A stretch of 4,153 bases of DNA from a virus (IMGVR_UViG_2703718873_000011:1-4153), one strand, 5' to 3'; positions 384 through 4,153 are shown, counted from the stretch's first letter. The notes: generated by a model not told the origin, from the letters alone. Program-made: numbers and translations.

Positions 384-1121
384 TCATTCACTCTCTTTCA
401 AACCAGTTTTAACTGTTTGTGGTTTTGGGTAAGGCTGGACTTTGAATAGCTTTGTGTTGAGGCGTTTTCTGGCCCTCTTGTTCAGAAACCGGATGTAACG
501 AAACTGTCGGAACTTATGCACACTGGCTCTGTCGATATTAGCCCTCAGATGTTCACCTCGTTGTCCGCCTCGTTTAATGGCACTCCTGCAAATCTCGTGA
601 TACCACTCGCCATCAAGTTCATAGAATGTTGATTCATGGCTGCCTACATAATCAAAATTGCTTGCCTGATACACGACACCAAGACAGCCACAACGCTCAT
701 CTGCAAACGACTGAACCCACTGTACCTGCGGATAAAGCTGCCTGATTAGCTTGAGCGCGTAACTGATTGCCCTTGATTCGGAGTTTCTCGGCATACAGTC
801 ATGCATCCATAGCCGGTTAAGCTCCATATATTCTCGGTTCTGCGTACCCGTTACGACGCGTGCACCACTGTTTGGGTTAAGGGCGTAACCCCATTGCATT
901 ACGCCAACAAGTTCCCGTTCTGAAAATATACCCAGATGAAGGTAGGAATTATTTACGAAACGGTGGCTGTAATGTTTATTGACGATAACCAGTCTGGCCA
1001 GCCAGCAACTTATTGTCTCAACCCGCAACTCACGGGAGCCATAACCAACGATATTGTCGTTATAGCGAATAAGTTCAGGCGTGCTGATGATACGGGATGT
1101 GACTTGCTTTCTGTTCCCCAC
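384..1121 (-). CDS. mom: Mom-like DNA modification protein (phage Mu Mom family, adenine-modifying, GNAT-like)
   Basis: 245-aa ORF immediately downstream of, and overlapping by 47 nt, a Com-like zinc-finger gene, which is the com-mom operon architecture of phage Mu. Size is close to Mu Mom (about 231 aa). GTG start at 1121-1119 preceded by AAGGAAA 8 nt upstream. The family call rests mainly on context and size; I cannot verify residue-level identity to Mom without a search. Confidence 0.6.
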
Positions 1122-1275
1122 GACAGGATTTCCTTGTGTATGTGGGGTGCTCTGTGGCGCTCGGAGATGTGATTTGATTGAGGGTTTTACAGCGCGGACA
1201 TTTTACTTCCAGATAACTGAAACTGGCCCGTGCCAGTAGCTTATTGCAGTGTCGGCACCGTATGTTTCGATACAT
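1075..1275 (-). CDS. com: Com-like zinc-finger translational activator of mom
   Basis: 66-aa product [30 protein letters not shown]... with C-x2-C at residues 7/10 and C-x2-C at 26/29, matching the phage Mu Com pattern (IRCxxCNKLL ... CPRCK) as I recall it. ATG at 1275-1273 preceded by AGGAGG with 10-nt spacing. TGA stop at 1077-1075 lies inside mom. The TTG at 1320 that opens the track ORF is probably not the real start. Confidence 0.7.
1116..1147 (-). promoter_or_regulatory. Stem-loop sequestering the mom GTG start codon and RBS (candidate translation-inhibitory structure)
   Basis: On the minus-strand mRNA, CCCCAC (from 1147-1142) pairs with GUGGGG (1121-1116), where GUG is the mom start codon. 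The 20-nt loop carries the AAGGAAA Shine-Dalgarno and can form an inner stem (ACAAGG/CCUGU). Complementarity verified by eye; stability not computed. Confidence 0.4.
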
Positions 1276-1320
1276 GGCCGCATAACCTCCTGCTTTGTTG
1301 TTGATGCCTTTCTCATGCAA

Positions 1321-1341
1321 TCGATCGACAAAAACGATCGA
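1321..1341. promoter_or_regulatory. Paired palindromic Dam sites (TCGATCGA ... CGATCGAT) upstream of com
   Basis: GATC at 1323-1326 and 1336-1339, each within a CGATCG palindrome, separated by ACAAAAA; 48-64 bp upstream of the com ATG. Read as analogous to the Dam/OxyR-controlled GATC sites upstream of Mu Pmom, but this is inference. Confidence 0.3.
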
Positions 1342-1440
1342 TTCGATTTGTTTAATTGATACAACAAATAGATTTAAAAGTCATCAACAATGATTCAGGG
1401 CGGTGATTATTTACTTAAAGAAACGAAGAGTTAGGTGGTG

Positions 1441-1462
1441 AAAACGATCATAAAATGATCAT
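1441..1462. promoter_or_regulatory. Second pair of GATC sites in a near-symmetric AT-rich element (AAAACGATCATAAAATGATCATTTT)
   Basis: GATC at 1445-1448 and 1456-1459 within a GATCAT direct repeat flanked by A4/T4; a further GATC at 1492-1495. All in the com / zinc-ribbon intergenic region. Confidence 0.25.
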
Positions 1463-1504
1463 TTTATTGACTTTTTATACAGTGAAGGTAGGATCGCGCG
1501 TATA

Positions 1505-1573
1505 TGTAGTATGTTTCAAATCAACAGGATACTACATAAAAGGGAAACCCAGCATAGCTGGAACTATGCTGGG
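1505..1573 (-). terminator. Tandem perfect hairpins; on the minus strand the second is followed by a U-rich tract (terminator or insulator candidate, alternatively a structured sRNA or operator)
   Basis: Hairpin A: TGTAGTAT (1505-1512) / ATACTACA (1529-1536), 8-bp stem with 16-nt loop. Hairpin B: CCCAGCATAG (1548-1557) / CTATGCTGGG (1564-1573), perfect 10-bp stem with 6-nt loop. On the minus strand hairpin B is followed by UUUCCCUUUUAUG (complement of 1535-1547). Confidence 0.35.
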
Positions 1574-1681
1574 TCAATCTGTAAAAACTTGCATCAATGC
1601 TTTACTTCGAGCTCGTGGCGTATCCTATGATATTCCCCGGTCTCCTGTAAAGCAGAGATGCATAAAAAGGAGATCTTTATC

Positions 1682-1852
1682 ATGGATAAAGAGCCTGTTT
1701 GCCCTGCCTGTAAGACTCCCTTACAGCTCATCTATCGCCGTTCTCGATCTCAAAATGGCAAGACATACAAACCAAAAAATGCTTCCTGTTTCAGGATGCT
1801 GATATGTCCGGCCTGTTCTCCCCGGAGGGAAAATACACAAAACGTGCATTAA
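1682..1852 (+). CDS. Small zinc-ribbon protein (56 aa), putative DNA/RNA-binding regulator
   Basis: ATG at 1682 preceded by AAGGAG (1667-1672) with 9-nt spacing. Product MDKEPVCPACKTPLQLIYRRSRSQNGKTYKPKNASCFRMLICPACSP... has C-x2-C at 7/10 and C-x2-C at 42/45, plus Cys36. Stop TAA at 1850-1852. Transcribed divergently from com. The track ORF at 1658 starts 8 codons earlier with no RBS. Confidence 0.5.
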   Translation: MDKEPVCPACKTPLQLIYRRSRSQNGKTYKPKNASCFRMLICPACSPRRENTQNVH

Positions 1853-1890: not shown

Positions 1891-2136
1891 TTACATCATA
1901 GTACCGTCAGTTCCGGGTTGAACCGGCTCTGGTTGCTCTACGGGTTGAGGCTCATTTTCCGTGCTGTTTTCAGCCGGAGAACGACCAACCATTCGGGCCA
2001 GCACTTCATCAACATATGCGTCGATTTGTGCCTCAAAATCCTTGCGAACCTGCGCCTTCAGCACGCGGTTCACTTCTTCAGAATAAAGTGCCTGTTTGAC
2101 AAGCTCTTCAGTAACCGTGCCTTTAATCTCTGGCAT
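1891..2136 (-). CDS. hypothetical small acidic protein (81 aa)
   Basis: ATG at 2136-2134 preceded by AAGGAG with 7-nt spacing; TAA stop at 1893-1891. The N-terminal 50 aa look helical and amphipathic; the C-terminal 30 aa are Pro/Glu/Gln-rich (PQPVEQPEPVQP) and likely disordered. No family recognised. Confidence 0.6.
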   Translation of the reverse strand: MPEIKGTVTEELVKQALYSEEVNRVLKAQVRKDFEAQIDAYVDEVLARMVGRSPAENSTENEPQPVEQPEPVQPGTDGTMM

Positions 2137-2171
2137 GAATATTCTCCTTTCCTTTTCTGGTTCACAAAAAA

Positions 2172-2351
2172 TTAAATCTGACCGGAGTCTTTCGGCTGCG
2201 GCATTACAGCACCGCTTTTTATCTTTTCCTCGGCAGCTGCATCAATTTTATTTCGAAAATAATTGCGAATAATTTTATAACCACCGCTGACAAGCAACAG
2301 ACAACAAACCACCGTGCAGAAATACAGCAGGCAGACGTTTATATATGTCAT
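2172..2351 (-). CDS. Small single-pass membrane peptide (59 aa), not in the supplied ORF track
   Basis: My own translation of the minus strand: ATG at 2351-2349, TAA at 2174-2172, product MTYINVCLLYFCTVVCCLLLVSGGYKIIRNYFRNKIDAAAEEKIKSGAVMPQPKDSGQI. One Cys-rich hydrophobic segment of about 22 residues is followed by a basic then acidic tail (positive-inside topology). GAGG lies 5 nt upstream of the ATG. It fills the otherwise empty 272-bp gap between the esterase gene and the 81-aa ORF. Confidence 0.4.
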   Translation of the reverse strand: MTYINVCLLYFCTVVCCLLLVSGGYKIIRNYFRNKIDAAAEEKIKSGAVMPQPKDSGQI

Positions 2352-2408
2352 ATAAGCCTCACTCTTATTAACTGATGTTACAGCCGGATAAATTCCCGGC
2401 CGTCACGA

Positions 2409-4153
2409 TTATGCCGCAGGGGTATTAACCTCAAGGACAACGCTCTCAAAAGACACGCCATAAGTTGCCCCTTTGGTGACATCTGTCAGTGTCAGCGTAT
2501 CTTTGGCAGGGGAAAGTGCATCTTTCACCATCTGGAATGCCTGGCCCGGAGTGCCATCCAGCACAGGCGTTACCTGGGCACTTCCCGCCGTAAACTTCAG
2601 GACAAGTGTATGCCACTGGTTATTGTAGGCTCCAAATGATCCCAGTTTCGTATTCCCCCCTGTTTTATGGTGCATCAGATTTAACTGGCCGCCTGTTGTC
2701 TGGAGATAATACGCCATCAGGAACGGTGTGCCTGTACCACTCATGGTTACACCTTCCGGGACCGTATCGGTGTGGAGGTAAATACCCAGAGCAAACTGGC
2801 CTTCTTTTACTTCACCTGACAGACGGAATTTACAGGTCAACTGACCACCATGCTTCAGAAGTTCACCGGCTGCATCAGTTCCATGGGTAAGCGTCCAGGT
2901 TTTTCCGCTTTGTTTGGATACGGTCAACGCTTTACCTTCGTCCGTCAGCTGGATTGTACCATCTGTAATTTTCCAGCCCTGAGCCGGGGCTTCTCCTGCT
3001 GATGCTTTAAGTGAAAGCAGCGTACGGAGTGACGGGGATGTCGGATGGGGGGACTCACTGCCTCCTGGCTGACTACCTGTCGGCGCTTCCGGTTTCCCAC
3101 CCGGCGCGGGCTGAGGCAGGGCTTCACCATCAGGGGCCACACCGGCAATAAATGCAGAGGTCAGACCTGCATATTTAAGAATTGCTGATGCAAAACGATC
3201 TGAGACCAGAAAACGGCGCGCCCAGGAGCTAAAATGGGTTGCCCTGGATGCTGTTGTCCAGTTGCCATCTCCCCGTGATTCCGCACCATAATACCCGGCA
3301 GAAGCGATATCCGGGTCGTGCTCCGGCAGGTTGGTCGCGGTTTTATTACCGAACTCATCGTGCATCAGTGGAACAAAGTGAATGTTCTCGGAAGCCCGGT
3401 TTTTATATCCGCTATAAATGGTTTCATATGCCGCCGGGTTCTTCTCTTTCCAGTCATAGGTTGTGTCACCACATAACCACGGCACACTGTCTGATGAACC
3501 ACCAATACACTGACCGGAGAAAGCACCAAGATCCGCACGGAATTTTTTCACCATCGCAGTAAACTGGGCACCATGCTGGGCCGGGGTCGCTTTAAGGTCT
3601 CCTTCCCCCTGAATCCATACGACAGATAACAGCACATTCTTTGGATTCGCCTCAAGTGCCGCTTTAGTTCGACTGACAAGATCCTGATACAGTGGGGTAT
3701 CCACTCCCCAGCGTAGTGACGCCTCGGCTGCACCACTTGCCGGATCGAATGAGCCAACTGCGCCGGTTGTAAAAGCAGAGCCGCCACGGGCACAGGGAAC
3801 CAGTAAAATCCCGGCATCAGCAGGAATCACCGGTAATACTTTTTTCGCAATATGAAGTCCCTGCCCCACACAACCATACTGCCCTTTTTTCAGGTCTGCT
3901 TTTGGATGGTTCAGCAGACTCATATTCTGAACATCATGAAGGCAGTGATCTGCTGGAATGATTTCATTGTATTTGCAGGGAATACCTCCGGGGGTTTGTG
4001 TATTCCTGCGTGCCAGCTGCATAATACGTGGATCAGGACGATCATAAGAATCCGGAAGGGGCAACCCTTCACCATAAGATGAAGCATTGGACTGGCCGGC
4101 TATAACAATCACGTAATACCAGGAAGGGGAGCTGGAAGCAGTTTCATTTCCTG
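2409..4153 (-). CDS. SGNH/SASA-family carbohydrate O-acetylesterase, prophage NanS-p-like (partial; N-terminus outside window), with C-terminal beta-rich putative carbohydrate-binding domain
   Basis: The frame stays open upstream of the GTG at 4112 to the window edge (…GNETASSSPSWYYVIVIAGQSNA…). The GQSN motif after a hydrophobic beta-strand is the block-I signature of SASA/DUF303 sialate O-acetylesterases. A Pro/Ser/Gly-rich linker (PQPAPGGKPEAPTGSQPGGSESPHPTSPS) precedes a C-terminal domain of about 200 aa. At least 581 aa are visible, consistent with prophage NanS-p proteins of roughly 645 aa that carry an extra N-terminal domain (from memory). TAA stop at 2411-2409. Confidence 0.8.
   Translation of the reverse strand, partial: GNETASSSPSWYYVIVIAGQSNASSYGEGLPLPDSYDRPDPRIMQLARRNTQTPGGIPCKYNEIIPADHCLHDVQNMSLLNHPKADLKKGQYGCVGQGLHIAKKVLPVIPADAGILLVPCARGGSAFTTGAVGSFDPASGAAEASLRWGVDTPLYQDLVSRTKAALEANPKNVLLSVVWIQGEGDLKATPAQHGAQFTAMVKKFRADLGAFSGQCIGGSSDSVPWLCGDTTYDWKEKNPAAYETIYSGYKNRASENIHFVPLMHDEFGNKTATNLPEHDPDIASAGYYGAESRGDGNWTTASRATHFSSWARRFLVSDRFASAILKYAGLTSAFIAGVAPDGEALPQPAPGGKPEAPTGSQPGGSESPHPTSPSLRTLLSLKASAGEAPAQGWKITDGTIQLTDEGKALTVSKQSGKTWTLTHGTDAAGELLKHGGQLTCKFRLSGEVKEGQFALGIYLHTDTVPEGVTMSGTGTPFLMAYYLQTTGGQLNLMHHKTGGNTKLGSFGAYNNQWHTLVLKFTAGSAQVTPVLDGTPGQAFQMVKDALSPAKDTLTLTDVTKGATYGVSFESVVLEVNTPAA

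Follow-up and report, generated by a model that had tools for sequence, protein, structure and literature searches.

A putative Mu-related Dam/OxyR site predicted to lie on the com-mom promoter of a Mu-like prophage

In bacteriophage Mu, mom is controlled at several levels by Dam, OxyR, C and Com, a safety circuit familiar from textbooks. The Mom enzyme, which hypermodifies DNA and is toxic, was recently shown to be glycyl-tRNA-dependent (PMC13219725), and the Mu mom promoter, Pmom, is governed by Dam and OxyR and is weak, with a suboptimal spacer and dependence on the activator C (PMC3378877). A viral stretch of 4,153 nucleotides (nt) (IMGVR_UViG_2703718873_000011:1-4153; this whole stretch is referred to as the window), which represents the right end of a transposable prophage related to Mu, carries com and mom on the minus strand with five Dam (GATC) sites upstream of com. 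This raises the question of whether the operon is under the same methylation-dependent control as in Mu and, if so, through which of the sites. The two GATCs nearest to com appear to be a rearranged form of the Mu switch, predicted to lie over the core promoter, and the other three appear to belong to a separate module.

A sequence scan located the GATCs at 1323, 1336, 1446, 1457 and 1492, exactly where a first-pass annotation, made from the sequence by a model, had placed five sites in ∼175 bp. Two CGATCG sequences (1322 and 1335) were confirmed 48-64 nt upstream of the com ATG (1275, minus strand). They had been described as a tandem pair; both are present, but more precisely they form the two arms of an inverted repeat that is perfect over 9 bp per arm. 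The minus strand across this proximal pair reads tATCaattaaacaaatcgaatcGATCGtttttgtcGATCGattgcat, with the GATCs at -64 and -51 from the com ATG. In Mu (AF083977), 95 nt separate the end of gin from com, and the three GATCs, which read cGATCGaatcaattaaatcGATCGgtaatacaGATCGattatgcccc, are at positions -109, -91 and -78 relative to the com ATG. According to a publication, an oligonucleotide covers -58 to +20 of the Mu mom promoter; therefore, the Mu transcription start is 22 nt before the com ATG and the Mu GATCs are at -87/-69/-56. The window pair aligned with Mu GATC sites 2-3, with the same 13-bp spacing and with the GATCGATT flank and an upstream ATCAATTAAA block in common. The proximal pair is thus homologous to GATC sites 2-3 of the Mu Dam/OxyR control region upstream of Pmom.

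Conservation of the GATCs was evaluated in 21 genome loci and 80 viral contigs encoding Mom relatives, 81 of which had a recognisable com and yielded 53 distinct 150-nt upstream regions. At least two GATCs spaced by 13 or 18/19 bp were present in 51 of the 53 regions, and the two regions without GATC were from non-enterobacterial marine bacteria (Candidatus Endobugula and Parathalassolituus). Successive GATCs upstream of com were 13 bp apart in 36 cases and 18/19 bp apart in another 36, compared with 4 and 3 of 763 spacings elsewhere in the same loci, and GATC density was 16.4 per kb upstream of com versus 2.6 per kb elsewhere. The first-pass annotation had stated that its proposal would fail if the GATC sites were not conserved in homologous loci; they were conserved, a result that applies to the proximal pair only. 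Among 12 distinct near relatives the pair was invariant, and both the 37-bp OxyR-type block (1324-1360) and the stretch from TATTTGTTG through GATCGATT were almost invariant. The 15 nt following GATCGATT (1304-1318) varied, with at least four alleles, and the last 30 nt before com were again invariant. A 70-nt region was present in 215 of 5426 complete Escherichia coli genomes, with 204 of 217 matching records at least 99% identical.

Three com-mom layouts were distinguished. In layout A (Mu type), which was found in Mu, D108, SfMu and Yersinia vB_YpM_5, the GATCs are at -109/-91/-78; in layout B, two GATCs 18 bp apart are in a perfect palindrome at -98/-80; and in layout C (window type), a 13-bp GATC pair is at about -64/-51. 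The GATC module is thus present in nearly all enterobacterial com-mom loci and takes three or more layouts. The palindrome of layout B loci (L061, L062, L065 and others), GACGATCGATA-N6-TATCGATCGTC, has 11-bp arms, holds both GATCs and is a poor fit to an OxyR half-site, with about 5/10 per half in a hand alignment. Mom homologues (63-71% identity) without com upstream were found in Yersinia, Serratia and Sphingomonas contigs (L011, L013, L014, L015 and L019). Loci L004 and L007 also lack com, yet a 13-bp GATC pair is kept upstream of mom.

The clustering of the five GATCs, taken by itself, was only modestly unusual. The window contains 16 GATCs, not the ∼13 of the first-pass count, and 15.2 were expected from shuffles, which rules out an overall enrichment. 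At least five GATCs in any 175 bp of the whole window had a P value of 0.036 (dinucleotide shuffles). The corresponding value was 0.021 for the intergenic stretch 1276-1657 and 0.002 for the interval 1321-1495, which was picked after seeing the data. Functionless, chance clustering in AT-rich intergenic DNA would be consistent with the absence of a GATC excess and with the window-wide P value, and is quite possible for the three distal sites. For the proximal pair, chance is excluded by the conservation of position and spacing across the 53 distinct loci and by homology to the functional sites of Mu, and as a general explanation it is extremely improbable.

The spacing of the proximal pair is that of a known type of OxyR target. 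In gtr(P22), two GATCs 13 bp apart are within one OxyR dimer half-site (ATAGnTnnnAnCTAT), and methylation abolishes OxyR binding (PMC2909390). The window pair lies in a putative OxyR-type site composed of two predicted half-sites offset by exactly 22 nt. Its consensus match of 13/20 equals that of the Mu site aligned in the same way and compares with 14/20 for agn43; according to the literature, the Mu and agn43 sites are OxyR-bound. In 18 distinct 13-spaced pair elements the GATCs were fixed and unspecified interior positions drifted, and positions specified by OxyR were enriched (T6, 13/18, P = 3e-4; A10, 12/18, P = 1e-3; G4, 12/18; C12, 13/18). Selection acting to keep Dam sites within an OxyR half-site would leave this pattern, and a phage-specific operator would not. 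Among the distant window-type loci, L003, L049 and L050 retain a GATC in the upstream half-site, ATCGtTaaaAcAAAT, which lies 31 nt away and is identical at 12/15 positions to the degenerate copy in the window; the upstream half in the window is homologous to the GATC-bearing one of L003. A 32-nt half-site spacing has been described as canonical for reduced OxyR (PMC4856963).

The perfect 9-bp inverted repeat, AATCGATCG-N7-CGATCGATT, might instead be the operator of a phage regulator, such as a C/Mor-family late activator bound at about -36, with the GATCs incidental. The repeat sits where Mu has its C box, beside a weak promoter with a 19-nt spacer, and the prophage encodes a C homologue (L104 28406-28831) with 39% identity to Mu C. 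However, neither the palindrome nor any intergenic CGATCG occurs at the lys and I late promoters of the prophage, and a role as a late-activator (C) site was ruled out on this ground. Furthermore, only the GATC tetranucleotides and the OxyR-specified positions, not the arms, are kept in diverged loci, and in Mu-type loci the same module is upstream of a separate C box. Thus, an operator of this kind seems very unlikely. The lys and I promoters have a common 21-nt box, TGAnATyCCGCAAArCCyGCC, 30 nt before a TAyGCT hexamer, and no box like it was found at the corresponding place before com. A C-box-like sequence, ATAATCACCGCCC (1410-1398), with GACTTT 28 nt downstream follows the Mu spacing rule, but it was set aside as unexplained because it is not conserved in L038-type loci and its geometry is inconsistent. 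Within the 41-kb prophage locus, the gene-coding strand carries just two copies of the 10-mer CCGCCCTGAA, one upstream of com (1394-1403, minus strand) and one at the putative late promoter of a protease/scaffold (I-like) gene (L104 20456-20465, minus strand). It may be a remnant or half of an activator box, and its geometry differs between the two places.

Sigma-70 scans found no strong promoter on the minus strand between the upstream terminator (1575-1537) and com, as would be expected for a mom promoter, given that the Mu promoter is weak and C-dependent. The sequence TTGAAA-18-GATCCT (1519-1490) scored well, but it is the reverse face of a plus-strand -10 and was rejected. The favoured candidate, TTGTCG-19-YATCAW, scored 8.97 in locus L035 (TATCAT), compared with a 99.9th percentile of 5.68 for the window minus strand with a simple sigma-70 matrix. 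Its 19-nt spacer is retained in all alleles, and the sole indel (+6 nt in L025) is downstream of the -10. In nearly every other class examined, the best or near-best -10-like hexamer was 31-42 nt before the com ATG: TAAGAT at -34 in Mu, which is the real -10, TGnTAGATT at -41 in L003, TATCAT at -31 in L035, TATACT in L048/L049, TATAGT in L050, TAGAAT in L016 and TAAACT in L006. A distance of 16-20 nt separates the proximal GATC from the -10-like hexamer here, versus 40 nt in Mu. These comparisons suggest that com-mom transcription starts near 1294, and in that case the GATCs would be at about -45/-32 and the OxyR-type site at about -66 to -30. The -10 allele in the window, CATCAA, the weakest-looking of the series CATCAA/TATCAA/TATCAT, dominates E. 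coli records.

A different promoter for the same Dam/OxyR site was also considered. If the real promoter were ATGACT-17-TATCAA, farther upstream, OxyR would block initiation or early elongation, as has been proposed for agn43. Window-type and L038-type loci differ at five positions of the spacer, yet the 17-nt spacing is kept and both hexamers are invariant, and L038 has a better -35, ATGACA. In agn43, the RefSeq IsrC/flu 5' end coincides with GATC-I, so the agn43 OxyR site is promoter-proximal or downstream. However, the element scores low (3.6 to 5.0 with the simple sigma-70 matrix), its -10 lacks T6, and its leader would be unusually long compared with the 22 nt of Mu. There is no equivalent element in the distant window-type loci L003 and L048-L050, which have a strong -10 just downstream of the pair (TATACT, TATAGT or TGnTAGATT). 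This arrangement is therefore considered rather unlikely.

The favoured mechanism, to which we assign a probability of roughly 0.6, is occlusion of the -35 by OxyR unless both GATCs are methylated. The proximal pair would form one OxyR dimer half-site, G-ATCGtTtttgtCGAT-C, accompanied by a second half-site without GATC 22 nt upstream. Unmethylated, the pair would be bound by host OxyR, and a hemimethylated pair may also permit binding, as the title of a paper on Mu states. As the OxyR-type site covers the predicted -35 (TTGTCG-19-CATCAA) in this lineage, bound OxyR would exclude RNA polymerase and the toxic com-mom operon would remain silent. Full Dam methylation of both GATCs would expel OxyR and open the promoter. 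The locus thus seems to contain a known switch in a rearranged layout, unlike that of the four named Mu-like phages checked (Mu, D108, SfMu and vB_YpM_5).

The position of the proximal GATC, whose G is shared with the predicted -35 hexamer, also allows for an effect of Dam without OxyR. Methylation at the -35 might alter the affinity of RNA polymerase, or SeqA might bind the hemimethylated pair and tie com-mom to replication. In the gtr study, mutating GATC3/4 was noted to affect the promoter directly (PMC2909390), and SeqA was an ancillary factor in the opvAB study (PMC4856963). However, this explanation accounts for neither the conserved 13-bp spacing, nor the T6/A10/G4/C12 enrichment, nor the second half-site, and the homologous Mu sites work through OxyR (PMC3378877). 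It is decidedly unlikely.

Several points weigh against occlusion of the -35 by OxyR as proposed here. Although the top matches of an OxyR consensus scan were at 1324-1391, a 13/20 match somewhere in the window was reached in 62% of composition-preserving shuffles, and the scan was not accepted as stand-alone evidence. Several overlapping registers score 13-14 in the AT-rich stretch around the site, and the match is partly circular, ATCG...CGAT being supplied by the GATCs themselves. Half-site position A10 is G in the window, and the third Mu GATC is missing, with TATC in its place 22 nt upstream. The -10 of the window (CATCAA) lacks the conserved T1 and T6, and the upstream promoter-like element (1356-1384) also bears a conservation signature. 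The compared loci are related, and the counts and P values overstate independence. Finally, OxyR binding, Dam sensitivity and the transcription start were all deduced from the DNA sequence.

In a bolder version, the Dam/OxyR site would have moved onto the core promoter and displaced the C box, so that com-mom would be freed from the late lytic cascade and ruled mainly by methylation of two GATCs, possibly in a phase-variable manner in lysogens. This is an unlikely scenario at present. If it were true, a subpopulation of lysogens could switch Mom on, which would amount to phase-variable, prophage-encoded hypermodification of host DNA, and the -10 allele series CATCAA/TATCAA/TATCAT would tune the leak.

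The three distal GATCs had been included in the first-pass annotation in a single 175-bp non-coding stretch upstream of com. That grouping did not hold, as the distal sites surround a divergent, plus-strand promoter-like element, TTGACT-16-TAGGAT (1467-1494), which outscores every other sigma-70 match of the region. GATC 1492 makes up the end of its -10, GATCs 1446 and 1457 are just upstream of its -35, and GATC 1457 is the centre of the palindrome AAAATGATCATTTT (1452-1465), for which inspection by eye only gave no convincing match to a Fur box or other known operator. The divergent hexamers and their 16-nt spacing recur with unrelated spacers in L048 (TTGACT-16-TAAGAT) and L049 (TTGACG-16-TATAAT).

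According to the first-pass annotation, all five GATCs would form one Dam-gated unit for com-mom. All five are between the upstream terminator (1537-1575) and com, and 1446 and 1457 are invariant in relatives that carry the distal module. However, those relatives are at least 94% identical there, so the invariance says little. L038-type prophages share only ∼95 nt upstream of com, with unrelated DNA beyond, and homology of the E. coli matches H49 and H50 ends at window position 1370; in both cases com-mom and the proximal pair persist and the distal module is absent. L028/L029 have lost GATC 1492, the divergent promoter persists in L049 without any GATC, and the 11-nt distal spacing does not fit an OxyR half-site. 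A single five-site unit is therefore highly improbable, and the distal GATCs appear to be a separate module around the divergent promoter, with nothing tying them to com-mom. The idea of Mu-like Dam gating through OxyR was thus partly supported: homology, conservation and consensus fit favour it for two of the five GATCs, it did not extend to the distal three, and the predicted layout differs from that of Mu.

Table 1. Features of the window and the basis on which each was assigned
Feature	Position	Strand	Basis or remark
Proximal GATC, in CGATCG	1323-1326	.	Corresponds to Mu GATC site 3; its G ends the predicted -35
Second GATC, in CGATCG	1336-1339	.	Spaced 13 bp from the proximal GATC; corresponds to Mu GATC site 2
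Perfect inverted repeat AATCGATCG-N7-CGATCGATT, 9-bp arms	1319-1343	.	Contains both proximal GATCs
Putative OxyR-type site, 37 bp, ATCAaTtaaAcAAAT-cgaatcg-ATCGtTtttgtCGAT	1324-1360	-	13/20 to ATAGnTnnnAnCTAT-N7-ATAGnTnnnAnCTAT
Predicted half-site at the pair, ATCGtTtttgtCGAT	1338-1324	-	7/10 to the OxyR half-site consensus
Predicted upstream half-site, ATCAaTtaaAcAAAT	1360-1346	-	6/10, background P = 0.018; degenerate TATC replaces the third GATC
Predicted -35 of the com-mom promoter, TTGTCG	1326-1331	-	Predicted from the score of the L035 allele
Predicted -10, CATCAA (relatives: TATCAA, TATCAT)	1301-1306	-	Predicted; position as in other classes
Alternative promoter-like element, ATGACT-17-TATCAA	1356-1384	-	Would place the GATC pair at about +11/+24 and the OxyR-type site from -10 to about +26
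com Shine-Dalgarno sequence, AGGAGG	1286-1291	-	Sequence; inside an invariant block
com ATG	1275	-	Sequence
com, zinc-ribbon translational activator of mom	1075-1275	-	Pfam Zn_ribbon_Com, E = 2e-12; RefSeq annotation
mom, DNA adenine hypermodification enzyme	384-1121	-	Pfam Mom, E = 8.5e-77; 79% identity to Mu Mom
Distal element, GATCs 1446, 1457 and 1492 around promoter-like TTGACT-16-TAGGAT (1467-1494)	1446-1495	+	Score 10.6
Intrinsic terminator, 13-bp stem and T-run	1537-1575	-	Insulates com-mom from the upstream esterase-DUF1378-DUF826 genes; compensatory changes between loci
56-amino-acid zinc-ribbon open reading frame, CPAC...CPAC, good Shine-Dalgarno sequence	1682-1852	+	Downstream of the divergent promoter-like element; not part of the com-mom switch
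DUF826 gene	1891-2136	-	RefSeq annotation of the matching locus and Pfam
DUF1378 gene	2172-2351	-	RefSeq annotation of the matching locus and Pfam
Sialate-O-acetylesterase/DUF6645 gene	from 2409	-	RefSeq annotation of the matching locus and Pfam

The genomic setting was deduced from matches on both sides of a junction at ∼255/256. Positions 1-255 had 99.6% identity to the major head gene of Shiga toxin (Stx)-converting phages (933W, VT2-Sakai and others), and beyond ∼256 the phage-database matches were solely to 'inserted Mu-like phage' regions within two Stx prophages. The end of the Mu-like prophage is at ∼256, adjoining the disrupted head gene; therefore, a Mu-like phage has transposed into an Stx prophage, which it presumably inactivated. 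Similar Mu-like insertions are annotated in GenBank LC727895 and LC727881. Positions 1076-1900 were matched at 100% identity in the chromosome of E. coli 2014C-3307. The 38-kb element at that locus is a complete Mu-like prophage, in which genes for transposase, Gam, a Mor/C-family activator, lysis, head and tail were present along with gin. A RefSeq 'tRNA-OTHER' is annotated in the prophage at L104 21123-21202 (plus strand), between virion-morphogenesis and head-morphogenesis genes and on the strand opposite to all of its neighbours. Between gin and com there is an esterase (SASA and DUF6645)-DUF1378-DUF826 cassette (window 1891-4112, minus strand; L104 1777-4313). The cassette is presumably of a kind typical of Stx/lambdoid phages, and we take its esterase to resemble the NanS-p esterases of Stx phages.

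The small zinc-ribbon open reading frame downstream of the divergent promoter-like element has protein-level homologues in L048/L049, and a Pfam scan assigned it to no family. It seems to behave like a swappable cassette, because other relatives carry an unrelated open reading frame of 68-76 amino acids at the same position. A 'frameshifted hypothetical protein' annotated at 1390-1852 (plus strand) by RefSeq/PGAP was rejected as a gene, as the long open reading frame is intact only in L030 and crosses the terminator hairpin; the annotation is probably an artefact centred on the zinc-ribbon open reading frame. On the minus strand from 1651 to 1537, TTTACA-18-TAGGAT is followed ∼45 nt later by a 13-bp hairpin and T-run. 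This looks like an ∼80-nt small RNA antisense to the 5' untranslated region of the zinc-ribbon gene. Its promoter hexamers are conserved in L048/L049, compensatory changes affect four pairs of the hairpin, and L026/27/47/91 carry the unit as a tandem duplication. A search of 1200-1950 against Rfam gave no family, and the only match was below threshold and chance-like. The com leaders of L048, L049 and L050 have a hairpin about 35 to 20 nt before the ATG that is absent from the window lineage, and changes in its stem keep the pairing (GCCAC...GTGGC in L048 versus GCCG...CGGC in L050).

The window-type layout, as yet undescribed for any of the four named Mu-like phages checked, is present in ∼4% of complete E. 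coli genomes, and the records include O157:H7, O111:H8 and O103:H2 strains. It is predicted to place a putative methylation-sensitive site directly over the promoter. Should this be confirmed, the lineage would offer a natural experiment on the replacement of an activator-dependent architecture by an epigenetic repressor site. The two GATCs are concrete targets to inspect in existing single-molecule real-time (SMRT) or nanopore methylomes; a published methylome of an O111 Shiga toxin-producing E. coli mentions a Mu-like prophage, and site-level methylation data for the prophage were not found in the methylome literature. A further implication for annotation is that neighbouring GATCs should not be lumped into one switch.

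The closest comparison is with Mu and its relatives D108, SfMu and Yersinia vB_YpM_5, transposable phages whose right end likewise carries the com-mom operon. The window resembles Mu in the 13-bp GATC pair, the GATCGATT flank, the ATCAATTAAA block, the 13/20 OxyR fit and a predicted weak promoter with a 19-nt spacer. However, it has two GATCs (-64/-51 from the ATG; ∼-45/-32 from the predicted start) in place of the three of Mu (18- plus 13-bp spacing), the third having degenerated to TATC 22 nt upstream rather than 18 nt. The module is ∼24 bp nearer to com, over the predicted -35, where Mu has its C-activator box; in Mu, the GATCs (-87/-69/-56; region -87 to -53) are upstream of, and separate from, the C box and the -35. 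The space available here is too short for a C box, and none could be recognised. In addition, the 3-kb esterase/DUF1378/DUF826 cassette and a divergent small gene lie between gin and com, whereas gin abuts the region in Mu.

A GATC pair inside a predicted OxyR half-site that overlaps the predicted -35 (or lies within -10 to +26 under the alternative promoter) is also reminiscent of the agn43, gtr and opvAB phase-variation switches, which work through Dam and OxyR. As in agn43 (flu), whose GATC-II/III (atcGATCgtttatatcGATCgataag) are identical to the window pair at 21/26 positions, a single OxyR site would act as a repressor close to or over the transcription start. agn43 differs in being a chromosomal (CP4-44) adhesin gene, in having three methylatable GATCs (19 and 13 bp apart) and in the position of its site, which is at or downstream of the start (RefSeq IsrC 5' end) rather than over the -35 as predicted here. 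In Salmonella opvAB (PMC4856963), OxyR half-sites have 7-10 of 10 matches, some overlap a GATC, and a half-site with a GATC is adjacent to the -35; the 32-nt half-site spacing is comparable to the 31 nt in L003, L049 and L050. However, OxyR is an activator there, four half-sites are present and methylation patterns alternate between lineages, whereas the window has a compact 22-nt offset.

The O-antigen glucosylation operons gtr(P22) and gtr(LT2_I) have GATC pairs exactly 13 bp apart inside one OxyR half-site, and gtr(P22) is phage-borne like com-mom. In gtr(P22), GATC3/GATC4 at -46/-33 overlap the -35, and OxyR bound there gives the OFF state (PMC2909390), nearly the same position as predicted for the window pair. 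The gtr systems differ in that they have three half-sites and two GATC pairs, which form alternative activating (AB) and repressing (BC) sites and switch heritably, whereas one pair and two half-sites were seen here, with no sequence homology beyond the motif. The com-mom switch of this prophage would thus combine the logic of Mu Pmom with the geometry of gtr(P22) GATC3/GATC4.

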